DNA of 64,000 nucleotides, taken from positions 32,001 to 96,000 of IMG/VR virus record IMGVR_UViG_3300022745_000018. One strand, 5' to 3'. This document shows positions 3,598-24,214 of this stretch, one piece after another. The stretch's first letter is position 1, and each line of letters begins with the position of its first letter. This DNA is from a virus. The notes beneath the pieces were generated by a model that was not told the origin of the DNA, did no database searches, and worked only from the letters and a program-made list of their open reading frames with translations. The position numbers and the translations under genes were made by a program.

Positions 3598-4046
3598 TAG
3601 TACTTACTTACAGATTCTGAAATTTGTTTCGAGGACGTAAATCCTTTTGTGTACATCTCGGCTGCTTTTTCTAGGAACTTTGCACCAGAGAAACTGGCCA
3701 TGATGACTGTAGCCAATTCCCACCAAACACTGAACTCATTGTGTCTGGAAATAGCAAACATCAGTACACCAGCCAAGAAACTTCCTAGCATATGGCTTGT
3801 CGCAAACAACCCAATTCTACTGATTCCGGTAGCTTTGCGCTTCATTTCTGAATCCAGACGGATAACAAGAGCAGTCGCACCAGATAGAATAGCAACACCG
3901 GCCATCACCAAGACTTGCGTCATGCTGATATTAGCGAAAGGATCTGGTGGAGTAGTCGCTACTGCGGCACTAACGGCCATAGGCCATAGGAAAAACAGTA
4001 AGATTTTAGCAATGGCGATTTTTCTAATGAAGTTGTTCTTCTGCAT
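3597..4046 (-). CDS. Multi-pass membrane protein, putative holin
   Basis: 3-4 hydrophobic helices; immediately upstream of endolysin. Confidence 0.55.
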   Translation of the reverse strand: MQKNNFIRKIAIAKILLFFLWPMAVSAAVATTPPDPFANISMTQVLVMAGVAILSGATALVIRLDSEMKRKATGISRIGLFATSHMLGSFLAGVLMFAISRHNEFSVWWELATVIMASFSGAKFLEKAAEMYTKGFTSSKQISESVSKY

Positions 4047-4485
4047 GTTTGTCTTCAAAGCAATTCGTCATCTTTACAAAGATGTCATACCCAGCAATGA
4101 TGGTGGCAATTACCCCATCGAGAAAATATCGAGCTATTGACAACGAGTTAAGGTCTTTGATCGTCAAAACAATCGCCGAGGTAACCAAACATATGAATAG
4201 CGCTAAAACCATGTAGATGACATGTCTATTATGCGATATGCTATCTACTACATATTTATTTAGAGATCTGAAGTCCGATGTAAGGGTATCGTATAACCCA
4301 ATCGCGATAACGATAAAGAACGATGATAGAATCGTTGTTGTACTAGACGATATCGCCTCATTAAAGAAATGGTGACCAAATGTGCTGTCGTAGAACAAAC
4401 TAACAACGGTAAATAACATGCTCATCAGAAGGTATAATCTGACACATGTGTATGCATGCCAATGATTCTGTTTACCCATATTCAT
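4024..4485 (-). CDS. 4-TM membrane protein of lysis cassette
   Basis: Four hydrophobic segments; start uncertain. Confidence 0.5.
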   Translation of the reverse strand: MNMGKQNHWHAYTCVRLYLLMSMLFTVVSLFYDSTFGHHFFNEAISSSTTTILSSFFIVIAIGLYDTLTSDFRSLNKYVVDSISHNRHVIYMVLALFICLVTSAIVLTIKDLNSLSIARYFLDGVIATIIAGYDIFVKMTNCFEDKHAEEQLH

Positions 4486-4489
4486 TTCA

Positions 4490-5440
4490 TTACCCCAAGA
4501 AGCCGATAGGTGGAAGTTCATAAGTGTCTCTAATTTCATTTTCTGCTGACTGAATCTCAGCCTCCGCTTGTGCCATCAAAGTACTAGCATCAATCGTCAC
4601 TCCACCCAACAACTGAATGTTTTGGTACTTAGATGTATTGGATGCCCATTGTTTCTTTATCACAGCCGTCACTAATTTCTTCAATAGACGGTCATTGTAA
4701 ATCTTCACATATGTATCTGGATCAAGAATGCGATATGTTTCAAACACGATCGTCGTCCCAATCGTGAAACCCGACATATCAGTATCCAAATAGATACGAT
4801 TCATTTTCTGGTTGAAATTGATCTGTGGAAGAGGTCTAATTGTTTTATCGACCAATTCCATGTATTCACGGACTTGTTCATAGTAGATCAACGATGACGA
4901 ACCCAATGTCGATAATTGGCTTGTTAGATTGAACATCGGATCGAACAAGAAGTTCTGTGACGAGTAGTTTGGAGTCCACGGAACTGCTCTAATGACACCA
5001 GTTACTAATGGCGACACCGAAACATACCCGTTTTCCGTATCACCCTGTACTTTCAATAGAAACGTTGTGGTGAATCCTGTCTGATTTGTCAGTGTTTCGT
5101 TAAGAACTAACGATTGACCAGAAGCACCAATTGGAGAAAATACTCCATTGGTAATGGCGATAGTCGGTGTTTTCATGTCATCGACTATGAAGTAATTACC
5201 GTTAGCCGCCGTCACTTTATCACCCTTCTGCAATCCAGAAGTACTCATGGTGATCTCCGTACCAGTGATTACGTGTTTCAACCAAACGCGCTCAGTTGCA
5301 TCGTAATGGAAGTCTTGGAAAAACTGTAGAGCATCATCAACTCTATCTTGAACTTGAGTCATGTCAACTTCAATGTTGATGACTGGTGCACCTAACTTCC
5401 GTAGTGCATATTCAATCAACTTCTGTCGTGTATCAATCAT
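4490..5440 (-). CDS. gp13: Neck protein (gp13-like)
   Basis: YALRKLGAPVINIEV, DDALQFFQDFHYD, KKQWASN..KY..IQLLGGVT, C-terminal PPIGFLG. Confidence 0.92.
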   Translation of the reverse strand: MIDTRQKLIEYALRKLGAPVINIEVDMTQVQDRVDDALQFFQDFHYDATERVWLKHVITGTEITMSTSGLQKGDKVTAANGNYFIVDDMKTPTIAITNGVFSPIGASGQSLVLNETLTNQTGFTTTFLLKVQGDTENGYVSVSPLVTGVIRAVPWTPNYSSQNFLFDPMFNLTSQLSTLGSSSLIYYEQVREYMELVDKTIRPLPQINFNQKMNRIYLDTDMSGFTIGTTIVFETYRILDPDTYVKIYNDRLLKKLVTAVIKKQWASNTSKYQNIQLLGGVTIDASTLMAQAEAEIQSAENEIRDTYELPPIGFLG

Positions 5441-6707: not shown

Positions 6708-6716
6708 ATATCACTT

Positions 6717-8111
6717 TCAATCGTAACTAAAATCGTCAAATGTGGTATTCGATTCAGAGATTTTGGATTTCTCCCAGATCTCATCAGAGAACATTTTTCC
6801 GCTACCTTTTTGTGGTTGAGCCTTCTCCACAGATGGGTTGTCCAAATCATACATCCGCATCTTCGAGTAATCGACACCCATCATGAATTTATTAGGGTCA
6901 TCCAATGATTTGTAGCGATTCTTCAACTGTCTGAACATCAATTGTTTCATTTGCTTCAAATCATCCGTGTTAATGATGGCACAGAACCAGTCAGCGATCA
7001 TCGGTGTACCTAGAGATTCGGATGTAGATGTCATGTCGACATCTGTGTTACCTACACCAGAACGGTTTGTCTGAACCGCAGTAATCACGGCGCAATTTGT
7101 TTCAATCGCCAATGCTCGGAGTTCTTCACCAACTGATTTCTGGATCGTGTATGAGTTTGCACCAGACGAAGGTTTGAATTTCTCTGATGCAACAATGCCC
7201 ATGTAGTCCACAATGATCAAATCGGGGACGAAGTTCTGTTTGGTCTTCAAGTCCTGGAGTAATGATCTGAAATGCCCACAATGAGAAGCACCCGTGGGAA
7301 ATTCCTTGATCTTCAGAACACCTCTGCTTTTCTCGATGACTGATTTGAACTTGTTATTGAAAACTGGTTTCGATAACATCTTGAGTGTTTCTGTGTCCAC
7401 ACCCATCATGTTCAAGTCATGACGTAGACCGATTTCAAACTCAGACATCTCAGCGGAGATGTACAAGACGTTGTAACCAGCCAATAGAGCACCAACACTG
7501 AAGTTAGACATCACAAACGATTTGCCGCCGTGAGGTGGTGCCAACAGAATATTGAGAGTCTTCCTCGGGAATCCACCACCAGTGATTTTGTCAAACATCA
7601 CAGACCCGGTAGGGATCCTAGCTTCAACCGAATGATAGTATTCCCAACGGAGTTCGGCTTCAGTCAAGTAATCGTGGCCTACTTGTGTATCGAAACAAAT
7701 AGATAGAGCTTGTGTGAGGATTGATGGGATAGCATCAGGGGTCATCTTGGACTGACCATCCGCAATCAAAACAGATTCTCTTAGAGCATTGTAGATTGCT
7801 TGATCTTTACAGAATTTCTCCGTAGCATCCATGAGATACTTCAGAGATTCAGTAAACTCCACGGTGGAAGAAATGACGTTCTTCAGTCCAGCATACAGTT
7901 CAGCGGAACCTTTGAGATTCTCAATCTCAACCAACAGTGCTTGTTTTGATGGTAAACCATTGTGCTTGGTGAAATACCGCGAATAGATCTTGAAAAGTGC
8001 TTTATCTTCTTTCTGCTGGAAGTACTCATCACGTAGATGAGGCATCACTCGCCTAGCATATTCCTCATTGGTTATAAGCTGTGAAAAAATTAGATCTTCT
8101 GTACGCATCAA
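6717..8111 (-). CDS. gp41: Replicative DnaB-like helicase (gp41)
   Basis: VGHDY, Walker A APPHGGKS, YISAEMSE, IKEFPT, IIVDYM, EELRALA, QTNR, QLKNRY. Confidence 0.93.
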   Translation of the reverse strand: MMRTEDLIFSQLITNEEYARRVMPHLRDEYFQQKEDKALFKIYSRYFTKHNGLPSKQALLVEIENLKGSAELYAGLKNVISSTVEFTESLKYLMDATEKFCKDQAIYNALRESVLIADGQSKMTPDAIPSILTQALSICFDTQVGHDYLTEAELRWEYYHSVEARIPTGSVMFDKITGGGFPRKTLNILLAPPHGGKSFVMSNFSVGALLAGYNVLYISAEMSEFEIGLRHDLNMMGVDTETLKMLSKPVFNNKFKSVIEKSRGVLKIKEFPTGASHCGHFRSLLQDLKTKQNFVPDLIIVDYMGIVASEKFKPSSGANSYTIQKSVGEELRALAIETNCAVITAVQTNRSGVGNTDVDMTSTSESLGTPMIADWFCAIINTDDLKQMKQLMFRQLKNRYKSLDDPNKFMMGVDYSKMRMYDLDNPSVEKAQPQKGSGKMFSDEIWEKSKISESNTTFDDFSYD

Positions 8112-8132
8112 GCGCCTTCATAACAAAATTAA

Positions 8133-8161
8133 ATTGTAATACCGCCGAGCGGACATGTAAA
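8133..8161 (-). promoter_or_regulatory. Sigma70-type promoter TTTACA-N17-TACAAT, overlapped by GCCGAGCGGA hairpin (8144-8176)
   Basis: Direct match; same AAATTTTACA box recurs 7 times upstream of replication/metabolism genes. Confidence 0.7.
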
Positions 8162-8184
8162 ATAATCCGCTCGGCTTCTACCCA

Positions 8185-9246
8185 TCAATTAGACGACGGG
8201 TCGTCCTCAGCTACAAGAGTACCGTGGCTCAGTTGGAATTGTTTCCGTACCCATTCTTTGAATGACGGATTGGAAACAACTTTACCAAGGAACTCTTCGT
8301 TTGCAGTGTCCTTTTCGCGGACTTTACCACCAATGATTTCACCAGTCTCTTTATCAACGAGTTGATACCAACCGTTAGACGGTTTGATGACATGACCAGA
8401 TTCAATAGCCCATTCGAGGATACCAGAATATCGTTGAATGCCGCCCTCAAATGTAACCACAATCGGAATCACTGACTTCTCTTTAACATATCGTGATTTC
8501 TCAACCTTCAACTTGAAGTTCCAACCAACCAGATCTGTACCATCCTTCTCTTGCGACTTACCAATGAAGAAGACCACATCGGAGGATAGCATTCCGCTCG
8601 TCCCACCTGACATGATGGTTTTAGCGAACATACCCTGTTCTTCATAGACGTGTTGAATCGCTAGCAAAGACAAGTCTTTGATTGTTAAGTGCGGTGTAAC
8701 TAAACGCCACAGAGATTTGATCGACTTGGCTCGTGTACCCATGTCAGTTGCAGCAGATTCTTTTTCGGCATCAGAAGTTTCTTTCGTTGATGCAAGATTG
8801 CCGATACTGTCAACCATGAAGATGACTTTCTCACCGCGTTTGATTGCGTCGGCACCAGTCAATTTCTTCATTAGATCGAACTTCAGTTCTTCAACAGAAG
8901 TGATAGGGATATGCAAAACTCTATCTGGAGAGATGCCAGCAGCGACTAAAGTAGCTTCACTGATACCGAATTCGCAATCATACAAGACAAGAATTGCGTC
9001 TTGATGACGTTTTAGATAAGCAGATGCAAGAACGAGAGCATACGTACTCTTAAAATGTCTAGATGGACCAGCCAAGCTAATTAGACCAGAACGGAATCCA
9101 CCATCAATATCGCCAGACAAAGCAACATTGAGTGCATAGATTGGTGTTGGTGTAGTAGACTTATCCACAAACAACGTAGACTGAGACAAGACCTCCGCCT
9201 CTTTGATGGACGAAGCTTTTTTGAGTTTACTCATTAGAGTTGACAT
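8185..9246 (-). CDS. uvsX: RecA-like recombinase UvsX
   Basis: LNVALSG, AGPSRHFKS, YDCEFG, DSIGNLAS.KE, EKSRYVKEKS. Confidence 0.95.
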   Translation of the reverse strand: MSTLMSKLKKASSIKEAEVLSQSTLFVDKSTTPTPIYALNVALSGDIDGGFRSGLISLAGPSRHFKSTYALVLASAYLKRHQDAILVLYDCEFGISEATLVAAGISPDRVLHIPITSVEELKFDLMKKLTGADAIKRGEKVIFMVDSIGNLASTKETSDAEKESAATDMGTRAKSIKSLWRLVTPHLTIKDLSLLAIQHVYEEQGMFAKTIMSGGTSGMLSSDVVFFIGKSQEKDGTDLVGWNFKLKVEKSRYVKEKSVIPIVVTFEGGIQRYSGILEWAIESGHVIKPSNGWYQLVDKETGEIIGGKVREKDTANEEFLGKVVSNPSFKEWVRKQFQLSHGTLVAEDDPSSN

Positions 9247-15710: not shown

Positions 15711-16121
15711 TTATTTTAGCTTAGCGAACAAGCCGATGTTATCTGCATGCGATGGAGCAGTCCATCCTTCTGGTTTGATCATATCAGGTAGACCCAAAGG
15801 ATTTGGCCTCGATGGTTTGATGCCAGGTTCTTTCTGCATGTTAGCAGTATGCACACGATCCCAAGCCAAATTAGGATTGACGTCAAATGCATTCATCGTA
15901 CCCAGAGACACCACATTGAGATCGGTTAGACCATCAACAACGCCATCAAAGTCACCCTCATTCCATGCATCCTCAATTTCTTGCATTTCTTCCTTCAGGA
16001 ATTTGAGACGAAATTCGAAGAATGTTCGTAGGGTTTCTTTATCGAAATCTTTGACTCGTTTGTTCACACCAAATTTGGTATGAAGATTCTCGATGTCATT
16101 GACCATATCACTATTACTCAT
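15711..16121 (-). CDS. All-alpha NTP pyrophosphohydrolase (MazG/PRA-PH-like; candidate dCTPase)
   Basis: EE..E, DGLTD, VH.ANM.K, KPEGW motifs. Confidence 0.75.
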   Translation of the reverse strand: MSNSDMVNDIENLHTKFGVNKRVKDFDKETLRTFFEFRLKFLKEEMQEIEDAWNEGDFDGVVDGLTDLNVVSLGTMNAFDVNPNLAWDRVHTANMQKEPGIKPSRPNPLGLPDMIKPEGWTAPSHADNIGLFAKLK

Positions 16122-16307
16122 TCACTTTCCTTCTTTAAAATAATCACTCATCAACTCAAACACATCACCAAACCTACAATCAAAACAACGCTGTGGTTTT
16201 GATTGTTCGGTCCATGATTTGTATAACCAAGCCGGGACATCAATGGTGACCGAATAGACACTACCATCATCGTTGGCCCTAACATTCTTTACACCAATGC
16301 CATTCAT
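16122..16307 (-). CDS. Hypothetical protein
   Basis: 61-aa ORF with AGGA SD, downstream of promoter. Confidence 0.45.
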   Translation of the reverse strand: MNGIGVKNVRANDDGSVYSVTIDVPAWLYKSWTEQSKPQRCFDCRFGDVFELMSDYFKEGK

Positions 16308-16330
16308 AACAATTCCTTCACTTATAGTAA

Positions 16331-16359
16331 ATCATATCATCACGGAGGAGATATGTAAA
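16331..16359 (-). promoter_or_regulatory. Promoter TTTACA-N17-TATGAT
   Basis: Direct match. Confidence 0.65.
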
Positions 16360-16363
16360 ATTT

Positions 16364-17608
16364 TCAAGCGATCTCGAAAATGTCATGTGCTTCGATTTTA
16401 GGCGAAGCTTTAACGAACTTCTGCGATTCGTTGTTCTGCCAGAAATCGCCGTGGCTAGAATCAACTAATTCACCATCAATGAACTTGATTGCTGCGTCGA
16501 TCATGTCTGCTGCGGTACAAACAGGTACGTTCTGACAGATCATATTGAAGTTCTTTACACCACCCAAGAGTTCGAAGTTCTTGGGCATAGCCATGATGTG
16601 CATAGCTTCTCGGATAGATAGACCGCGATCTTCGAATGGGTGAATTGTATCGCAGACATTTCTACCGACGAGAGCATTCATATGACCATCGAAAACGTGA
16701 ATGCTACCGTCCCAGATTCCTTTGTTCATGCCAAATTTCTTGATAGCGTGTGTCATGAATTTGACACCTTTCTCGTCGCTAACTTCTTCAAACCACTTTA
16801 GTGCAGTTGGCATCAATTCATGCATATGAATGTATTGAAATGCAGTACGCACATTTGCCTCAATGATCGCTTGGCGCCAGTCTGCAATACCCAAAGATTC
16901 GTTAATGAATCTTTTGCATGGTTCATTGATGATTGTTTGATTAACAATCAGATCCTGTTGAAGATCTGTAGGGGAGATCTCTTTCAAGTAATCTGTGAAA
17001 TGTAAATGGTCACGATTGTACCAAGGCAAGATTGGTGCGGTCGGATTCTTCCATGCAAAATAGAATGTACGATGCCGTGCCTGTGGGACACCATGATGAT
17101 TTGTTGATGTCTTGTAGAACGAAGAAGAGTACCCATACTCTTTAGCCGCTGCAATCAATCTAGCAGCGACACCTGCGCCTTTGTTCGTTGCAAGAGCTGG
17201 GGCATTCTCCATGATGAACACTTGACATTTGATTTTACCCAGGGCCTCTCTCAATGAATAGTCCATCCATCTAGTAGATGCAGCCATGGCACCGACAGAA
17301 GCAGATTCTTTCCCAGCTGTATTCAAACCACACAGCGCCGAACATGGCGGTGTTGCTACAACAATATCGGCATATTCGATTGGAGGACCTGAAACGACTT
17401 CACCAGATTCGTCCAGTTTCGTGTACTCAATACCATATGAATTTGTTACATTGGCCCAATTGAGATACTGTTCGTCATTCTTAAAACCATAACCAATGAT
17501 CTGCTTCGGAGGAGTCCCAATTCTACGCTCCGCACCCAAAGGGAATCCGCCGATCAAAGGGATAAGGGCCGTCCATGTTTTTGTTTTACTCATCATTAAC
17601 CTATTCAA
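16364..17608 (-). CDS. C5-cytosine methyltransferase-fold protein with atypical motif I
   Basis: PPC (IV), ENAP (VI), PQARHR (VIII), R.LSIREA (IX), QNVP (X); motif I reads IPLIGGF rather than FxGxG. Confidence 0.8.
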   Translation of the reverse strand: MNRLMMSKTKTWTALIPLIGGFPLGAERRIGTPPKQIIGYGFKNDEQYLNWANVTNSYGIEYTKLDESGEVVSGPPIEYADIVVATPPCSALCGLNTAGKESASVGAMAASTRWMDYSLREALGKIKCQVFIMENAPALATNKGAGVAARLIAAAKEYGYSSSFYKTSTNHHGVPQARHRTFYFAWKNPTAPILPWYNRDHLHFTDYLKEISPTDLQQDLIVNQTIINEPCKRFINESLGIADWRQAIIEANVRTAFQYIHMHELMPTALKWFEEVSDEKGVKFMTHAIKKFGMNKGIWDGSIHVFDGHMNALVGRNVCDTIHPFEDRGLSIREAMHIMAMPKNFELLGGVKNFNMICQNVPVCTAADMIDAAIKFIDGELVDSSHGDFWQNNESQKFVKASPKIEAHDIFEIA

Positions 17609-17627
17609 AGGAATTATTTATGGGCTA

Positions 17628-18869
17628 TTACTGAAAGAATTCGTCAATGGAATTAGACGATTCCTCGATAGAGTATTCTGATAGATCCGGTCTGATGTAA
17701 TTTTCGTCAAGAGCCTTCATGACAGTGTCATTGAGCGTTTCACCGGAATAGTCAGACGGTTTGCAGAAGATTTTCTGTAGGTGATCAATCATCCTAGAAT
17801 ATGAACCAGTTTCTTCAAGTTTTGTGATACCCTTGAAAAGATCTTCAGGCGTCTTTGGTAACAGGATGTCTGGGACAAGAGATCTGATCTCAGGGATATT
17901 TGTTGCATAGTTGGGATGGAAGAATGGAACAACACCTGCATGTATCATCTCAATGTACTTTGATGTAGCCCAGCCATTTGCGATTGAGATAATGAACGTG
18001 TACTTTACATTCAGCATCTTCTTCTGCACTTGTTCTAACTTCAATGCACCTTTGAATCTGGTATCAGCTTCGGCTTTAGGATGTTCCCATCTGCCATAGA
18101 TTTCAACATCATCGACCTTCTTCAGAATCCAATCATTCAGCATATCATATCTGCTAGGATCGCCTTCATTTAGAACGATAGCCATTTGCACACTTCTATC
18201 ACGAGATTTCTCTGGACCACCGCGACCATACAGGAAAACACGTTCAACACCAGAATAGGTCATGTTGATAGTATGACTATCACGAGTCTGATCTTCGTAT
18301 GATCGGATTGTCCGCTTCACATATGATCCATTGAACTGAGAGAGTGAACGAATTGGGTTAGGGATGATATCTCTTGACTGAGCCAATGTATAGCGAGGGT
18401 CATTGATGATTTCAATCGCTGGACATTTACTGTCGTTCCACCATTCAGAAATTGGTGTAGTATAACCCAATGTCATATCGATGATAGTCGTCATCTGACT
18501 CGGATCTTTGATCTGTTGGATTCTGTTGGGGATAGAGACGTTACCGACTTGGCCAACCATCCAGACACAATGGTCAATCTCTACGCTCAATTCAACCAAA
18601 CGATTCTTCACATAGTCGCGTTCAGATTTGATCTTTGACTTGGAATGGAGGTCAATGACATTATTGTAGGGAAATCTTGATAGACGTTCGTGTTCCGTCA
18701 TTTTGGAGAAATCAGAACGGCCAATCAGATAGAACTTCTTATCTGGGTTATGATTCGCCAAAAGTTGAATCATCGCTGGCCCTTCATTGTCACCACCGAT
18801 CGGACTGAACGGCGTAACAAACTTCAATGACTTACCAATCTTAGCAAAACCAATGTGCTTCATTATCAA
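17628..18869 (-). CDS. Putative GT-B DNA glycosyltransferase
   Basis: NDPR, IYGRW, TSKY.E.I.AG..PF pattern like phage beta-glucosyltransferases; in modification cluster. Confidence 0.6.
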   Translation of the reverse strand: MIMKHIGFAKIGKSLKFVTPFSPIGGDNEGPAMIQLLANHNPDKKFYLIGRSDFSKMTEHERLSRFPYNNVIDLHSKSKIKSERDYVKNRLVELSVEIDHCVWMVGQVGNVSIPNRIQQIKDPSQMTTIIDMTLGYTTPISEWWNDSKCPAIEIINDPRYTLAQSRDIIPNPIRSLSQFNGSYVKRTIRSYEDQTRDSHTINMTYSGVERVFLYGRGGPEKSRDRSVQMAIVLNEGDPSRYDMLNDWILKKVDDVEIYGRWEHPKAEADTRFKGALKLEQVQKKMLNVKYTFIISIANGWATSKYIEMIHAGVVPFFHPNYATNIPEIRSLVPDILLPKTPEDLFKGITKLEETGSYSRMIDHLQKIFCKPSDYSGETLNDTVMKALDENYIRPDLSEYSIEESSNSIDEFFQ

Positions 18870-19936
18870 AAACCTTTTCTATATTCACAAACCTTGGACC
18901 TTAGATCATCAACGATTTCCAATCGTCTTGATTCTGTCGTACCAAAGTCAAAATTCTTCAGATACAGTGAAGAAAGATTTATCCCGAAAGATTTCTCTAC
19001 ATTTTCGCAGATCACATCGTCATGCAATAGAGGCAAACAACCCGCATGGAGTGATTCGATTAGCCGGTAAATAGAGAATTGTGTTGCATCGTACGCTGGC
19101 ACAACCAGGGTGTATCTAGACCTCCCTATTAACTGTAGATACTGTTCTCTACCAATGAATGACGACGGTTCATCTGAAAACTTATCATGGAGAAACAGTT
19201 TCGCGTTCTTGAAATGTCTGGCGGCCTCTTTAGCCTTCTCAATCTGTTTAGAACGGACTTGAGTCAGAGCAGTCATCCCGAATGTAAAGTCAATGTCTTT
19301 CTTTGGAGCACCGAAGATGTTCTGATCTTGATACATCTCCAAGAAGTATTGCATCGAATCTAAACGCTCAAATGATCTACTCTCATCCGTATAACCATGA
19401 AACAGTTTGTAGTTGTCAATTGGGCGGTACTTCAGATTGATAGCGTTCAACGAAACTTCCTGAGGGTCGTAGATGACTTCGTACAATGGAATACCAAGTT
19501 CACGATTGGCTTTCAACATCGCTAAGACATGAAATATCGTGGAACCAACACTCAAGAAATTGATTTGGCCACGATCTTCAGGAAATTTCATTAGCCTCTT
19601 TGAACCATACTGCAAATATGATTTCTCGGATAGAATGCCACCGAAGATCACCAGTTTCTTGTATTTAGCCAATGGAGTCAAGTCAATTGAATTATATGCC
19701 TCAACCCAATCAGACATCTTGAACACTTTTGTGTGATAGAACTCATGATAGGGCATCACTACTTCATTGATCTGCAAACCAGAAACATCCATGATGTACT
19801 TTGAAACCTTTGTGGTTTTCTGATTAAGCATGATATCGCAAACGCCCAGTGTCTCTGACACCAAGAACTGCTGGATCAGACTCGTGACGAACTTACTAGT
19901 CAAGCCACGAGTTGAATACAAAAGGACATTACCCAT
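18866..19936 (-). CDS. Second putative GT-B glycosyltransferase
   Basis: YDPQE, K.IDFTFG, SRYTLVVPAYD..FSIYR..ESL..GC.PL. Confidence 0.55.
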   Translation of the reverse strand: MGNVLLYSTRGLTSKFVTSLIQQFLVSETLGVCDIMLNQKTTKVSKYIMDVSGLQINEVVMPYHEFYHTKVFKMSDWVEAYNSIDLTPLAKYKKLVIFGGILSEKSYLQYGSKRLMKFPEDRGQINFLSVGSTIFHVLAMLKANRELGIPLYEVIYDPQEVSLNAINLKYRPIDNYKLFHGYTDESRSFERLDSMQYFLEMYQDQNIFGAPKKDIDFTFGMTALTQVRSKQIEKAKEAARHFKNAKLFLHDKFSDEPSSFIGREQYLQLIGRSRYTLVVPAYDATQFSIYRLIESLHAGCLPLLHDDVICENVEKSFGINLSSLYLKNFDFGTTESRRLEIVDDLRSKVCEYRKGF

Positions 19937-20017
19937 TGTATGAGTAACCTCTCATGTAGCGATGATATTCGCCGCCATAGACTACTGAATTGAATTCAAT
20001 GCTGAATGTATAAGAGA

Positions 20018-20500
20018 TCATGCTGTACCTTTCGTTTGTACTCGATTTGATTCTGCTGCGGCGACTCGTGATCTCAAATCTGTTGTTGAGAATGAGTGTC
20101 GCCGTTTATTGTAATGGATAGGGCATAGACCAATTCCTGTATGATCTGTGCCTTTGTATTCTTCACCAACGATTCTGATATCGGGTTGGAGTGTCAGAAT
20201 GATATCAACGATTTCTTGTTCCGTGGTGAATGGGATGACTTCGTCGACATACTTACAAGCGGCAATTTGAACATATCGTTCAAACGCAGACTGCACTGGT
20301 CTGTTCTTTGTCTCTTGTCTATCCAATGTGGGATCTATCAGAAGACCGACTACCAAGTAATCGCACAGCGTCTTTGCTTCTTGTAACATCACGACATGAC
20401 CTGCGTGAAACAGATCAAAGGTCGAGCATGTAAAACCTACACGAATGTCGTTGATATCTTTCCCAAGTTTCTTCGCTAGTTCAACCTTGTTGAAAAACAT
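20018..20500 (-). CDS. TagD-like cytidylyltransferase
   Basis: TFDLFHAGH (HxGH), CDYLVVGL, YVDEVIP, FSTTDLR. Confidence 0.88.
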   Translation of the reverse strand: MFFNKVELAKKLGKDINDIRVGFTCSTFDLFHAGHVVMLQEAKTLCDYLVVGLLIDPTLDRQETKNRPVQSAFERYVQIAACKYVDEVIPFTTEQEIVDIILTLQPDIRIVGEEYKGTDHTGIGLCPIHYNKRRHSFSTTDLRSRVAAAESNRVQTKGTA

Positions 20501-21512
20501 TCTCAATGCACTTTCTAATATGTTCTTTATTTGGGTGATATTTGTAGACACGAGTGATCTCGGCACAAACCAAAACTATCATCGTTGAATGATATAGGTT
20601 ATTGAATGCAACCAATGACCGAAGAGATGTATCTATCATTTTCTGTGGGTATTCATTGATGTACAGAGAAGCAATGAACTTCGCTATATCCAATTCAGTG
20701 GAACCATAGACACTAGTGATAGGATCAATGAGATGCAGCTTCCCATCACCGAACAGCATATTAGTGATACCGAAATCACCATGAGCAAATGTTCTGACTG
20801 GTGGCTTGATCAATTCAAGCTTACTTGCATTATCAATTGCCGCTTGAACACCAGAATTCTTAGCATGGTCTTTGATTCTATCGATGTACGATGAGAAGGT
20901 CAGTCCACCGTCCATGAATGGAATCGCGGACATCTTTGCTAAAGCATCCTGAATCAACCCAAGAGCAATGAATGTATTGTTTCTGAAGAAGTCCACATCA
21001 TGATCAATGTATCTCATTGTGATTGTATCACCAACGATTCTATCTACACAAGGCACATTGAGCGAATAGCAGGCAGTCTTATACCATTCCTTGGTTTGAT
21101 GTGCATTCTTGTCTTGCTTATGGACCATAGCACCATCGGTATAGATATCCGAGCCAGATAGACCACCATGCAACTGACGAATGTCTTGCATAATGAATTC
21201 TTCTGGACTCATTCCTTTATCATCGATGTAGTATGCCGCTAAAGGTTTCTCGAATGAGATTGAATGATACTTGACACCGTGCTTCTCAAGCCAAGTCTTC
21301 ATGCCGCGTTCATACTTCAATCGAGCCTGAGCACGAGTCTGGCATGAAATCGAACCTCTAGCAGTAAAAATGTCGATTTGCCAACCATTATCAAACAGCC
21401 CATTTGTTTTCGTGATCAGTGATCTGTTTGGTACAGCATCATCCCAATTTCTACCTTCAGCGAACGCTAAGGTATCATCAAAGTCTAAAATGATTCGTTT
21501 GTGATAGTTCAT
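20481..21512 (-). CDS. HAD phosphatase / APH-choline-kinase-like fusion
   Basis: N-term DFDDT, FTARG, KP, YIDDK; C-term HGDF..TN, LIDP, DIAK. Confidence 0.8.
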   Translation of the reverse strand: MNYHKRIILDFDDTLAFAEGRNWDDAVPNRSLITKTNGLFDNGWQIDIFTARGSISCQTRAQARLKYERGMKTWLEKHGVKYHSISFEKPLAAYYIDDKGMSPEEFIMQDIRQLHGGLSGSDIYTDGAMVHKQDKNAHQTKEWYKTACYSLNVPCVDRIVGDTITMRYIDHDVDFFRNNTFIALGLIQDALAKMSAIPFMDGGLTFSSYIDRIKDHAKNSGVQAAIDNASKLELIKPPVRTFAHGDFGITNMLFGDGKLHLIDPITSVYGSTELDIAKFIASLYINEYPQKMIDTSLRSLVAFNNLYHSTMIVLVCAEITRVYKYHPNKEHIRKCIENVFQQG

Positions 21513-22193
21513 TTACTTCGCCAAGTTAAAGTCACAGACTAAACCAAAATGACGCTCATATACATGTAAGCTCGCTGCATTCCAGATGATCTCACCGGGT
21601 TCGATACTCAAACTTTCGGCTAGCATCCTATGAATTTTGTTTTGCCATGCAAAATCACCTTTGTATCCGAAGACGGCGTCGTTCGATCGCATGTAGACCA
21701 AACTAACCAATTTCCCATCACGAATCATGTGTTGTGTTGAATACGTACACATGAAATCTGACATACCATCTTTGTCGAAGTCGAATTGCATCGACGGGCG
21801 ATTGTAAATCATACAAGCACGGCGAGAAGTCGGATCTCTCCGAAGAGTTTCTAAGCAACTCAAATACTGAAAACTGTTCTGGGCTGACCAAATACACCAC
21901 CCATAGTTTGAATTGATTCCACCATCCTCGGATGCAACCGATTTCCAGATCTGGGGAATGGGTGGTGGGATGTCATTAACATTTAGAGATAGAGATTTGT
22001 ACCATTCAAACTCACGACGGTTCCAATCCTCGTTCACTGCACCGAAAATAGTTGGCTCGTCTGCAACAAACGAAGCGCCAACAATCTCAATCGTTTTGAC
22101 ACCAGTCTTGTCTTCAACGAATTCCTTTTTCTCTAAGAGTTCGATTAACTGATTCCTGATTTCGAATGTGTGAGGTAAAGTTTTACTGATCAT
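21513..22193 (-). CDS. gp42: dCMP hydroxymethylase/hydroxylase (thymidylate-synthase fold, gp42-like)
   Basis: DKTGVKTIE, NSNYGW, DFMCT, MRSNDAVFGYKGD (Asp at the dCMP-specificity position), SLHVYERHF. Confidence 0.88.
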   Translation of the reverse strand: MISKTLPHTFEIRNQLIELLEKKEFVEDKTGVKTIEIVGASFVADEPTIFGAVNEDWNRREFEWYKSLSLNVNDIPPPIPQIWKSVASEDGGINSNYGWCIWSAQNSFQYLSCLETLRRDPTSRRACMIYNRPSMQFDFDKDGMSDFMCTYSTQHMIRDGKLVSLVYMRSNDAVFGYKGDFAWQNKIHRMLAESLSIEPGEIIWNAASLHVYERHFGLVCDFNLAK

Positions 22194-22756
22194 AGTCCAA
22201 TGAATCCTTTGACTTGTGGTAGCAGATTCGCGAAACCAATCTGCGATACATTGTATTTAGCCTTTTTCTCAATTGTACTGAGATCGAACTGCTTTGTAAA
22301 ATTTTCAAGAGTCTCTGTCATCTGCTTCGGATCTGTTTCCAAACTCATACCATCATCACGAGCCATGATTGACTCAACCGAATCTGTTACGAGAATTAGA
22401 TAGACATCAGCGAGTCTGAAAATGTCTTTGTTGTAACCGCTGAAGATCTTTTCTTCAATCGAGGCTGATGTAACCGTGTTCGAATAGTTTCTATATCGCT
22501 GACCGTAAACAGGAACACCGATGTGGAATCTATCTGAAATGAAATTGAATGCAGCATCTTCATGAGCTAACGTTGTGTACGCGGTCACGATCGCTCCATA
22601 ATGGGAAATCTCCCATGCTAACGGATCATCGCATTTGGGTGGAGAACTGGAATGATTACAGAAAACATATGGCCCCAACTCATGGGCTAGATTTGCCGTC
22701 AGTGTGGATTTACCGCAGCGGTCTGGGCCCTCGATGATAACAAACTTCGGTTTCAT
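22190..22756 (-). CDS. dNMP (thymidylate-type) kinase
   Basis: IIEGPDRCGKST P-loop, DRFH..VYG..YR. Confidence 0.82.
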   Translation of the reverse strand: MKPKFVIIEGPDRCGKSTLTANLAHELGPYVFCNHSSSPPKCDDPLAWEISHYGAIVTAYTTLAHEDAAFNFISDRFHIGVPVYGQRYRNYSNTVTSASIEEKIFSGYNKDIFRLADVYLILVTDSVESIMARDDGMSLETDPKQMTETLENFTKQFDLSTIEKKAKYNVSQIGFANLLPQVKGFIGL

Positions 22757-23337
22757 TTTTTAAGTACTTTCTGCATATACTGTGCTTGGTAAATTGCATC
22801 GTCTAAAGCATTGTGATGGACGCCATCACGAGGATGTTCAATCTTAAACAATTCCTTGAATGTCCTAAAGCAGCGGGAATGACTCCATTTCCATGGAGGG
22901 GAGTTTCCTTCAACGGCATCAAAAACATTCTCCAAGATCACGGTATCAGAATGACTACGCTTTGTTGAAGTAGAGTTTCCTTCAACAGTATCGAAAACGT
23001 TCTCTAGGATCACGATGTCGAAATCAACACCGCATGACCATGTTGGATATGATTTAGGGCCGTACCATTCTCTGAATTTAGTCAAGCCATCTTCGATCTG
23101 AACTCTATTGTTCTTGGTGGCCTCCCAAGCAGCTTGCTTCTGTTCTTTCCACCAATCAACCGTAGACTTTGAAATGTGGAGGCCATATTCCGTCGACTGT
23201 GAACGATAATCCAAATTGATGTAGAACTTATCTACAATCTCTGTATCGTTGAACTTGACGGCCCCAATCGAAATGATGGCTGCGGTCTTTTTGGAAGACA
23301 GTGTCTCCAAGTCAATCATTACATTTACATCACTCAC
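22753..23337 (-). CDS. DEDDh 3'-5' exonuclease (DexA-like) with internal 24-aa duplication
   Basis: MIDLET, FD..IL, HNALDDA. Confidence 0.85.
   Translation of the reverse strand: MSDVNVMIDLETLSSKKTAAIISIGAVKFNDTEIVDKFYINLDYRSQSTEYGLHISKSTVDWWKEQKQAAWEATKNNRVQIEDGLTKFREWYGPKSYPTWSCGVDFDIVILENVFDTVEGNSTSTKRSHSDTVILENVFDAVEGNSPPWKWSHSRCFRTFKELFKIEHPRDGVHHNALDDAIYQAQYMQKVLKK
22877..23020. repeat. Diverged 72-bp tandem duplication inside exonuclease gene
   Basis: 22877-22948 vs 22949-23020; DIVILENVFDTVEGNSTSTKRSHS / DTVILENVFDAVEGNSPPWKWSHS. Confidence 0.9.
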
Positions 23338-23618: not shown

Positions 23619-23641
23619 ACTAATCCTTTCACAATCAGATT

Positions 23642-23670
23642 ATCATATCAAACACCATCACTGATGTAAA
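23642..23670 (-). promoter_or_regulatory. Promoter TTTACA-N17-TATGAT driving the modification operon
   Basis: Direct match. Confidence 0.7.
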
Positions 23671-23785
23671 ATTTTCTTGATTATCCTCAGTTTTGATATG
23701 TAAAGTTTTGTAAACACTGTGTGCAAAACTCACAAAGCAAATCTGGATATGGCATCCAGAGAGATTTTTCGCTCGCTAAAAAAAT

Positions 23786-23814
23786 TTTACATTTCCTGAA
23801 GCACTCGTTATAAT
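23786..23814 (+). promoter_or_regulatory. Promoter TTTACA-N17-TATAAT facing a non-coding region
   Basis: Near-consensus sigma70 match; about 400 bp without a long ORF follows. Confidence 0.7.
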
Positions 23815-24179
23815 ATTCATATAGAAGCCCTAAAAGTGATCTACTTTTTCGCTGCGCTCAAAGAGATCGTGTTCTAAATCTATGAGACTTGAATGATATC
23901 TAGAACTGTATAGATGAAATATTGCATGTGTAACATGCCGGTGGCTAGCCACCGTCTCATCCATTACGATAATCTGGATCTGTAATAGAGAATTCTACTA
24001 GATATCTCTAGATCGGAGAATCCAGAACGTAAGTTCAAGAATCCTCAATGAACCGCTTCGCGGTGCAGTGTTTAAACACTGCACTCTTCATTTCTATCTG
24101 TCGATTAGGAATCTATCGTTCCATCTATACAGACATCAATCCAGGGCTTTAGATGCATCCTGGACAATCTTTAGAAAAT

Positions 24180-24208
24180 TTTACAGAAACATATAGTCAG
24201 ATTACTAT
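24180..24208 (+). promoter_or_regulatory. Promoter TTTACA-N17-TACTAT, probably leaderless for helicase
   Basis: -10 ends 6 nt before ATG 24215; no SD. Confidence 0.55.
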
Positions 24209-24214
24209 AACTGA

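Follow-up and report, generated by a model that had tools for sequence, protein, structure and literature searches.

Which base is made by a virus that carries genes for activating a sugar beside those for altering its cytosines? The question is raised by a 64,000-nucleotide stretch of viral DNA (the window; bases 32001-96000 of the IMG/VR record IMGVR_UViG_3300022745_000018, which is 171.9 kb long and judged 99% complete), in which nine open reading frames (ORFs) lie co-oriented on the minus strand between positions 15711 and 22756, neighbours overlapping by 4 nucleotides or lying no more than 81 nucleotides apart. A first-pass annotation had described this block as a cytosine hypermodification cluster, and the genes that it named are all present where it had placed them, contiguous and on the minus strand; the E-values and Z-scores of their matches, given below, lie well outside the reach of chance. 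The block probably encodes a complete pathway for DNA containing glycosylated 5-hydroxymethylcytosine (5hmC), with a sugar donor that is made by the phage.

The precursor base would be supplied by the gene at 21513..22193, whose 226-residue product is related to T4 gp42, the deoxycytidine monophosphate (dCMP) hydroxymethylase. It matches the solved T4 enzyme (1b49) over residues 10-219 at 4.2e-79 and PF00303 at 3.3e-18, and its catalytic cysteine (DFMCT) and the aspartate of a KGD motif align with their T4 counterparts (DFMCT, RND), the latter with T4 Asp179. This residue is the dCMP-specificity site, equivalent to Asn177 of E. coli ThyA, and it is aspartate in the window's gp42 and in 41 relatives. 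These were recovered from a survey by local tblastn of 80 loci, the best of at least 154 IMG/VR stretches that encode relatives of the glycosyltransferase P3, discussed below (loci, in this set or outside it, are given L-numbers where they need to be told apart); a gp42 homologue is present in this set wherever the locus extends far enough, and all 41 recovered are of the hydroxymethylase type. The description of the block as a cytosine hypermodification cluster built on gp42 is borne out by these features. The first-pass annotation had also offered 5-hydroxycytosine (5hoC) as an alternative to 5hmC, an option that is disfavoured. Synthases of 5-hydroxy-dCMP, of the RB69 gp48/DLP3 gp80 type, have asparagine where E. 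coli ThyA has Asp169 (PMC13326640), whereas the window's gp42 has aspartate there (RSND), as does T4, and so do 41 of 41 related homologues. Because of this difference the precursor should be 5hmC, and 5hoC was rejected as the base; that the window encodes a true dCMP hydroxymethylase is strongly supported by its residues. As regards a TET-type source of 5hmC, no Tet_JBP match was found in the 171.9-kb genome, a weak negative given that the control genomes were silent too.

Two further genes would act on the nucleotide pool. The gene at 22190..22756, which overlaps that for gp42 by 4 nucleotides, encodes a thymidylate-kinase-like P-loop nucleotide kinase of 188 residues (phrog_761, 2.3e-14; TIGR00041, 5.8e-6; P-loop GPDRCGKST) that may serve as a 5-hydroxymethyl-dCMP (5hm-dCMP) kinase, and in RB69 and DLP3 a similar kinase lies beside the thymidylate synthase (TS) homologue (PMC13326640, Table 1). 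At the other end of the block, 15711..16121 encodes a MazG/PRA-PH nucleoside triphosphate (NTP) pyrophosphohydrolase of 136 residues (PF01503, 7.5e-9; phrog_671, 1.4e-23), a candidate for the deoxycytidine triphosphatase (dCTPase) role of T4 gp56. Of the 80 related IMG/VR loci, 22 have a MazG homologue together with gp42, as has the non-T4 phage L090, and PRA-PH is among the top domains that co-localise with dCMP-type TS homologues in modified-cytosine contigs (10.1101/2024.12.05.627091).

The genes that would build the donor lie directly beside gp42. A 343-residue fusion protein (20481..21512) combines an N-terminal HAD phosphatase domain (residues 1-115; motif DFDDT), which matches 1xpj (1.7e-8), the capsule biosynthesis protein 9iqw (2e-8) and TIGR01689 (1.5e-10), with a C-terminal APH-fold kinase domain (residues ~120-343; motif HGDFGITN...IDP), which matches PF01636 and PF02958 at ~8e-4 and, weakly, methylthioribose kinase. 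Methylthioribose kinase phosphorylates an anomeric hydroxyl, and the fusion may be a sugar anomeric kinase joined to a sugar-bisphosphate phosphatase. Its domains and motifs agree with the HAD-kinase fusion that the first-pass annotation had recognised. By its DFDDT motif and its matches to 1xpj and 9iqw the HAD domain is of the AfhF type, 1xpj being the top match for the AfhF-type phosphatases RB69 gp51 and DLP3 gp81 (PMC13326640). The window has no AfhE-like PF00483-kinase fusion and no arabinose-5-phosphate isomerase; PF01467 and HAD::APH genes are found instead.

The PF01467 nucleotidyltransferase (20018..20566; 2.5e-15) has intact HxGH and RxxxxSTT motifs and would act on a sugar-1-phosphate. 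Its longest ORF, from a GTG at 20566, shares 86 nucleotides (20481-20566) with the end of the kinase gene, and the real start is probably the ATG at 20500, which would give a 20-nucleotide overlap, to judge from a 144-residue homologue in L027. The best NCBIfam match is TIGR02199, the rfaE domain II family of heptose-1-phosphate adenylyltransferases (6.7e-22, below the equivalog cut-off). The TagD type (TIGR01518, 2.7e-14) is matched more weakly than this and far below its own equivalog cut-off, and the best PDB matches are 3elb, an ethanolamine-phosphate cytidylyltransferase (3e-22), and 1coz, a glycerol-3-phosphate cytidylyltransferase (3.8e-14). The NCBIfam match thus points to an adenylyltransferase and the PDB matches to a cytidylyltransferase, and from the sequence the donor nucleotide could be either CTP or ATP. 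Catalytic motifs of all three activities are intact, and kinase, phosphatase and nucleotidyltransferase would fit a route from a sugar phosphate through a sugar-1,n-bisphosphate and a sugar-1-phosphate to a nucleoside diphosphate (NDP) sugar. In this respect the proposal that the phage encodes its own donor-activation enzymes has held up.

The sugar would be transferred by two proteins, P3 (17628..18869) and P4 (18866..19936). Neither matches any Pfam family above cut-off, the T4 beta-glucosyltransferase (BGT) family PF09198 included, and a phmmer search of the PDB with them was empty. AlphaFold models built on alignments of metagenomic homologues were of high confidence (pLDDT 87 for P3 and 90 for P4; pTM 0.88 for both), and structure searches with them gave T4 BGT as the top match of each, in keeping with the GT-B-like folds proposed earlier. 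P3 has a GT-B fold that superposes on T4 BGT with Z 23.4 and a root mean square deviation (rmsd) of 3.3 Å over 309 residues, some four Z units above GT4 enzymes and the T4 alpha-glucosyltransferase (AGT); it would be the GT-B DNA glycosyltransferase at the core of the module. The fold of P4 is likewise GT-B (Z 16.1 (VIA), rmsd 4.9 Å over 285 residues; Foldseek 7.6e-7), with T4 BGT about two Z units above the remaining matches, and P4 appears as a second protein like the DNA glycosyltransferases. The C-terminal halves of P3 and P4 are distantly related to one another (hhalign 74%, E 2.9e-5). TagF entries are absent from the 50 best structural matches of either protein, which does not exclude a relationship to TagF. 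No gene for a T4-type AGT or BGT was found elsewhere in the genome, in a search whose AGT control was positive only below the family cut-off (three genomes) and whose BGT control was silent.

The two transferases differ in how widely they are distributed. At 50% identity, a profile of P3 recovers 592 representative clusters, and the score is below 1e-30 for 213 of these. P4 is rare, with 12 homologue clusters, and in the locus survey it was seen only in the window, L004/L005, L008, L011 and Pseudoalteromonas phage vB_Psh_XG4 (hereafter XG4). With two GT-B proteins resembling DNA glycosyltransferases, it is plausible that two units, or two kinds of unit, are added to each hydroxymethylcytosine (hmC), as the first-pass annotation had supposed. 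On a more speculative reading, virion DNA could naturally contain di-glycosylated 5hmC with a phage-made heptose and a second unit added by P4. In L006/L007 (10001-11973; JGI 3300050211, 3300051216), where the locus belongs to another 171-kb T4-like phage, a P4 homologue of 43% identity is followed by a gene of the T4 alpha-glucosyltransferase family (PF20691). This pair suggests a two-transferase system of different make-up, and the placing of P4 beside an alpha-glucosyltransferase-family gene is in keeping with a role as the second of two transferases that act together.

The closest precedent for the donor genes and the transferase is experimental. Pyle, Lund, O'Toole and Saleh rebuilt phage clusters in 5hmC-producing E. 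coli (bioRxiv 10.1101/2023.12.21.572611), and one of these, 'contig 53', contains a bifunctional HAD-like/APH-like enzyme, a cytidylyltransferase and a BGT-like GT-B protein, all three of which were required for the formation of 5-heptosyl-mC (449 amu, atomic mass units) and its di-heptosyl form (641 amu). The transferase, GT53, is 429 residues long, and the PDB entries that it matches best are BshA and T4 BGT; genes of the contig 53 type were tagged by these authors with TIGR01689 and TIGR02199, and in their database mining the neighbours of GT-B genes were TS homologues in ~28% of cases and dioxygenases in ~10% (10.1101/2023.12.21.572611). The first-pass annotation had considered the enzyme combination in the window to be unfamiliar. 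This does not hold: the trio is already known and has been reconstituted in E. coli to give heptosyl- and diheptosyl-5hmC (10.1101/2023.12.21.572611). As in contig 53 (subclass III), a HAD/APH enzyme, a cytidylyltransferase-like enzyme and a BGT/BshA-like GT-B protein of ~410-430 residues stand side by side in the window, where the genes also match TIGR01689 and TIGR02199. However, in contig 53 a C5-methyltransferase and a TET-like dioxygenase make 5hmC after replication at GpC, whereas in the window gp42 would supply it before replication, so that every cytosine should be affected. The window also adds genes for P4, MazG and the nucleotide kinase.

Other known systems share parts of this organisation. 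The likeness to T4 is seen in gp42 itself (4e-79), in the manipulation of the nucleotide pool followed by post-replicative glycosylation, in the BGT fold of the transferases and in the position beside genes 45, 44, 62 and regA. T4 differs in that it takes uridine diphosphate (UDP)-glucose from the host and encodes no donor pathway, and it is without a C5-methylase-like gene; in addition, P3 and P4 lie outside the BGT and AGT Pfam families by sequence, and the pyrophosphohydrolase and kinase of the window differ in type from gp56 and gp1 (BLAST, PHROG). The AfhE/AfhF UDP-arabinose pathway of RB69, DLP3 and HY126 leads to arabinosyl-5-hydroxycytosine and resembles the window in having an anomeric kinase, a HAD phosphatase, a nucleotidyltransferase and GT-B transferases that act on DNA (PMC13326640). 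The window differs in using PF01467 rather than PF00483 and in having the kinase fused to the phosphatase, not to the nucleotidyltransferase. The match of the HAD domain to 1xpj and the thymidylate-kinase-like kinase beside the TS homologue are shared with RB69 and DLP3; by contrast with RB69, DLP3 and HY126, the TS homologue of the window has aspartate at ThyA position 169 and no arabinose-5-phosphate isomerase is present. The window's transferases are also nearer to BGT than to the HY126 transferase (Z 23.4 versus 17.2).

The bacterial ADP-heptose pathway (HldE kinase, GmhB HAD phosphatase and HldE/HldC adenylyltransferase) uses the same three-step chemistry, with a phosphatase of the same superfamily and a nucleotidyltransferase of the same family (TIGR02199, the best NCBIfam match). 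It differs from the window in that its kinase is pfkB and not APH-fold, in having a GmhA isomerase, which the window lacks, and in an acceptor other than DNA, and the window's scores are below the equivalog cut-offs. Finally, the phage clusters that combine a C5-methyltransferase with a 5mYOX (TET) enzyme (PMC8256090) resemble the window in that a gene of the C5-methyltransferase fold adjoins DNA glycosyltransferases. No TET-like gene was found in the window, and its 5hmC would come from gp42; the methyltransferase-like gene is thus left without an evident precursor-making role.

The donor genes come in two layouts beside the same glycosyltransferase (GT) family. The HAD::APH fusion (~50% identity) with the nucleotidyltransferase (73-79% identity) is found in 50 of the 80 loci. 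The second layout, which is the AfhE/AfhF arrangement, has a stand-alone HAD protein of 110-131 residues and an NTP_transferase::APH fusion of 500-560 residues; it is seen in L004, L040, XG4, L094 and Enterococcus phage Planchet, and in the first three of these the fusion is PF00483::APH. In a quick maximum-likelihood tree of P3, which has long branches and should be treated cautiously, the proteins of the 30 main loci that share the window's donor layout fall into a single clade, and the window's P3 groups with those of the P4-bearing loci L004 and L008 (SH-aLRT 98). Since L004 has the other layout and L008 is without a PF01467 gene, so that the window's P3 falls outside the clade that shares its donor layout, the window seems to have been pieced together from one donor module and a different transferase module. 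P3 homologues also occur inside TS-homologue clusters of unrelated backbones, namely L090 (non-T4) and L089 (the Enterococcus siphovirus Planchet).

Some of these loci carry genes that the window lacks. Between the HAD::APH and nucleotidyltransferase genes of L027 (8602-9552; IMG/VR 3300010316_000024) lies a 316-residue ORF without a Pfam or NCBIfam match. The same position is occupied, by gene spacing, in several loci of the main clade, L029 and L050 among them, and the product may be a further sugar-tailoring enzyme. In the relatives with the AfhE/AfhF-like layout, for which L040 stands (6708-7534; IMG/VR 3300042868_003731), gp42 is followed by a dCMP deaminase and a short protein of the uracil-DNA glycosylase (UDG) superfamily, neither of which is found in the window's cluster. 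The array of Planchet (L089, 2266-8794; OX422066), a siphovirus of a Gram-positive host, runs from a nucleotide kinase, a TS/hydroxymethylase with aspartate at the specificity site, a dUTPase and a HAD protein to an NTP_transferase::kinase annotated as 'glycosyltransferase', a P3-like GT and a further GT; it has the appearance of a glycosyl-hmC system, present in cultured phages, that has yet to be characterised.

Directly downstream of P3 lies a gene for a C5-cytosine methyltransferase-like protein (16364..17608, likely start 17593), which matches PF00145 at 9e-17 and is placed by the ESM Atlas among viral C5-methylase clusters. Motifs IV, VI, VIII, IX and X are present in the window's protein (PPC, ENAP, QARHR, RGLSIREA and QNVPV), and across 30-54 family members PPC, ENAP, QxRxR, RxLTIRE and QNVPV vary little or not at all, which is also true of an Asn-Asp pair that lines up with M.HhaI Asn39-Glu40. 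Instead of FxGxG, motif I reads PLIGG in the window and (I/V)PL(I/V)GG family-wide, including in cyanophage S-TIM5 and L090. This gene follows P3 in all 80 IMG/VR loci, and it also adjoins P3 in the distant loci L090, L091, L093 and L094, where P3 is 26-36% and the methyltransferase-like protein 28-30% identical and where gene order and backbone differ. The order is MazG, gp42, dCMP deaminase, a 121-residue ORF without a family match, P3 and the methyltransferase-like gene in L090, which is not T4-like (it encodes a primase-polymerase as well as a family-B polymerase, and its gp42, 48% identical, is of the hydroxymethylase type). L091 has HAD, P3 and the methyltransferase-like gene, L093 the last two of these, and in L094 the order is reversed (methyltransferase-like gene, P3, HAD, NTP_transferase). 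The adjacency is more than inherited synteny. The partners do also occur apart: Enterococcus phages have a P3 relative without the methyltransferase-like gene, and in S-TIM5 a member of the family (31% identity) occurs with no GT. A predicted complex of the methyltransferase-like protein with P3 scored 0.00, which counts neither for nor against binding. In S-TIM5 (L088, JQ245707) the 'ThyA' gene and the PLIGG-type C5-methylase-like gene (3757-4593 and 6977-8194) are 2.4 kb apart with no GT nearby, and this 'ThyA' has aspartate where E. coli ThyA has Asn177 (VPLDMF) and may act on dCMP. Our reading is that the methyltransferase-like gene accompanies genomes in which cytosine is substituted at C5 at the nucleotide level.

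Taken together, these genes suggest the following pathway. The MazG-type pyrophosphohydrolase may deplete dCTP, while gp42, with strong support from its sequence, would turn dCMP into 5hm-dCMP, which the thymidylate-kinase-like enzyme could phosphorylate for incorporation. In parallel, the APH-type kinase domain would phosphorylate a sugar phosphate from the host at its anomeric hydroxyl, the HAD domain to which it is fused would take off the distal phosphate and the PF01467 enzyme would make the NDP-sugar, for which published precedent points most readily to an activated heptose, with a pentose as the main alternative. After replication P3 would place the sugar on the hydroxymethyl groups of the DNA, and P4 might add a second unit or serve a second subset of sites. 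In the weakest step, the methyltransferase-like protein might carry out S-adenosylmethionine (SAM)-dependent methylation of unreplaced cytosines, such that every cytosine is substituted at C5.

Several points weigh against this pathway. No SIS-type isomerase was found in the genome, in a search whose control was positive in 14 of 14 genomes, and the starting sugar phosphate must therefore come from the host. The likeness to contig 53 is one of architecture, family matches and length, and it is from this likeness that the sugar is deduced. The P4-bearing relatives with which the window's P3 groups in the quick tree use the AfhE/AfhF-like layout, so that the donor could be a pentose, and between the two layouts the kinase domains have only the catalytic loop in common (E 0.003). 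For the MazG protein, a putative dCTPase, T4 gp56 is absent among the BLAST matches, which are instead to proteins of Pelagibacter, Rhizobium and Agrobacterium phages. Lastly, complete replacement of cytosine by hmC would leave a C5-methyltransferase without a substrate, and the motif I of this protein departs from FxGxG throughout its family.

The sugar is the part of the pathway on which the evidence is most divided, and heptose can be named only tentatively, while a pentose is a possibility of lower standing. With an activated pentose (arabinose or ribose) as donor the same enzymes would give pentosyl-5hmC, which is so far unconfirmed in any phage, the 'arabinosyl-hmC' of the RB69 type having been revised to arabinosyl-5hoC. 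The resemblance of the HAD domain to AfhF-type arabinose-1,5-bisphosphate phosphatases (1xpj, 9iqw), the weak resemblance of the kinase to methylthioribose kinase and the AfhE/AfhF-like layout of the closest P3 and P4 relatives (L004, L008 and XG4) would all suit such a product. However, the exact layout of the window (HAD::APH with PF01467) is the one shown to give heptose (10.1101/2023.12.21.572611), among families the nucleotidyltransferase comes closest to the heptose-1-phosphate adenylyltransferase domain, and arabinose-5-phosphate isomerase is absent from the genome. A cytidine diphosphate (CDP)-polyol, made by a kinase followed by a cytidylyltransferase, had been suggested by the first-pass annotation. 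In this scheme a CDP-alcohol or CDP-polyol of the glycerol, ribitol, choline or ethanolamine type would be the donor, and the GT-B-like proteins would attach a phospho-alcohol to 5hmC. The PDB matches of the nucleotidyltransferase (3elb at 3e-22 and 1coz at 3.8e-14) lean in this direction. APH-fold kinases include choline and ethanolamine kinases, and TagF-type enzymes also have a GT-B-like fold, both of which are counted in its favour. The scheme is nevertheless improbable, because it ignores the fused HAD phosphatase, which is without a place in a Kennedy-type route, and because the transferases are of the Leloir type and BGT-like, not TagF-like or LicD-like, the top structural matches of P3 and P4 being Leloir DNA glucosyltransferases and GT4 enzymes; moreover, the published trio gave a neutral heptose adduct and no phosphodiester (10.1101/2023.12.21.572611). 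It is most unlikely that the sugar genes instead serve the glycosylation of a virion protein or of a host-surface polymer and merely lie beside nucleotide genes. GT-B enzymes and NDP-heptose pathways do mostly serve cell-surface glycans, but both transferases match a DNA glucosyltransferase best, P3 well above cell-wall enzymes, the genes are embedded between gp42 and the DNA methylase-like gene inside the replication module, and the link with a dCMP hydroxymethylase holds in unrelated phage backbones.

Within the preferred pathway, that to glycosylated 5hmC with a phage-made donor, the role of the methyltransferase-like protein is itself a matter of choice. Methylation of cytosines that escaped replacement is, on balance, the favoured role. 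It is rather unlikely that the protein has a different chemistry on 5hmC or glycosyl-5hmC in DNA, as a covalent catalyst that exchanges or removes the C5 substituent, or that it is a base-flipping partner of P3; in both cases the end product would be something other than a simple O-glycoside. Such roles would accord with its place beside P3 in 80 of 80 close loci and, at 28-30% identity, in L090, L091, L093 and L094, with a motif I that is PLIGG family-wide while PC, ENA and QxRxR are invariant, and with the puzzle of a methylase without an obvious substrate where C5 is already substituted. Relative to M.HhaI, the family presumably carries Phe18 to Ile and Gly20 to Leu replacements, which are counted on the same side. 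So is the behaviour of C5-methyltransferases in vitro, where without SAM they can add or remove a C5 hydroxymethyl group and couple thiols to 5hmC. However, the residues expected to hold SAM are kept (Asn-Asp at M.HhaI Asn39-Glu40 and motif X QNVPV), the same clade is present in S-TIM5 without any GT, a P3 relative in the Enterococcus cluster does without the methyltransferase-like gene, and the heptose trio worked with no other methylase than the one that makes 5mC (10.1101/2023.12.21.572611). Were such a role nonetheless true, the virions of a large group of aquatic phages would carry an undescribed cytosine derivative.

With the trio of HAD/APH enzyme, cytidylyltransferase and BGT-like GT-B protein already known and experimentally tested (10.1101/2023.12.21.572611), what remains new is that the pathway occurs, and abundantly, in a version linked to gp42, that its donor genes have two interchangeable layouts, and that it includes an additional transferase and a tightly linked methyltransferase-like partner. 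Glycosylated cytosines are a known means of phage resistance to restriction enzymes, CRISPR nucleases and other defences that target DNA, and the module is widespread in metagenomes, where it accompanies gp42 in at least 80 T4-like contigs, yet no natural virion with such a base has been analysed so far. A cultured phage, Pseudoalteromonas phage vB_Psh_XG4, carries the module, with genes for gp42, HAD, NTP_transferase::APH, P3, P4 and the methyltransferase-like protein, and the pathway is short enough to reconstitute. The linkage of the methyltransferase-like gene with the GT where C5 is already substituted would represent either a fail-safe for complete modification or a new reaction of the C5-methyltransferase fold, and the transferases and donor enzymes could serve in the labelling of 5hmC.

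The setting of the block in the genome recalls that of T4-like phages. It is flanked by a gene for an Rv2179c-like exonuclease (22753-23337) and by the replication genes gp45, gp44, gp62 and regA, a neighbourhood in which genes 42 and beta-gt lie in T4. In a near-identity search of the DNA against cultured phages the sole match was a 196-bp stretch of gp42, ~76% identical to T4-like coliphages. The remaining ORF of the block, of 61 residues (16122..16307, between the methyltransferase-like and MazG genes), has no Pfam match and no homologue among the related loci. A scan for promoters and terminators gave counts that were not above those of shuffled sequences, and a promoter-like site, TTTACA-17-TATGAT, lies upstream of the block at 23670-23642 on the minus strand. 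It falls in the strand-switch gap at 23619-24214, which contains divergent promoter-like sites (that at 23670-23642 on the minus strand and another at 23786-23814 on the plus strand) and several hairpins. Within the Rv2179c-like exonuclease gene, 22877-23020 is an in-frame tandem duplication of 72 nucleotides (24 residues), the two copies of which are 75% identical and carry the segment VILENVFD.VEGNS.

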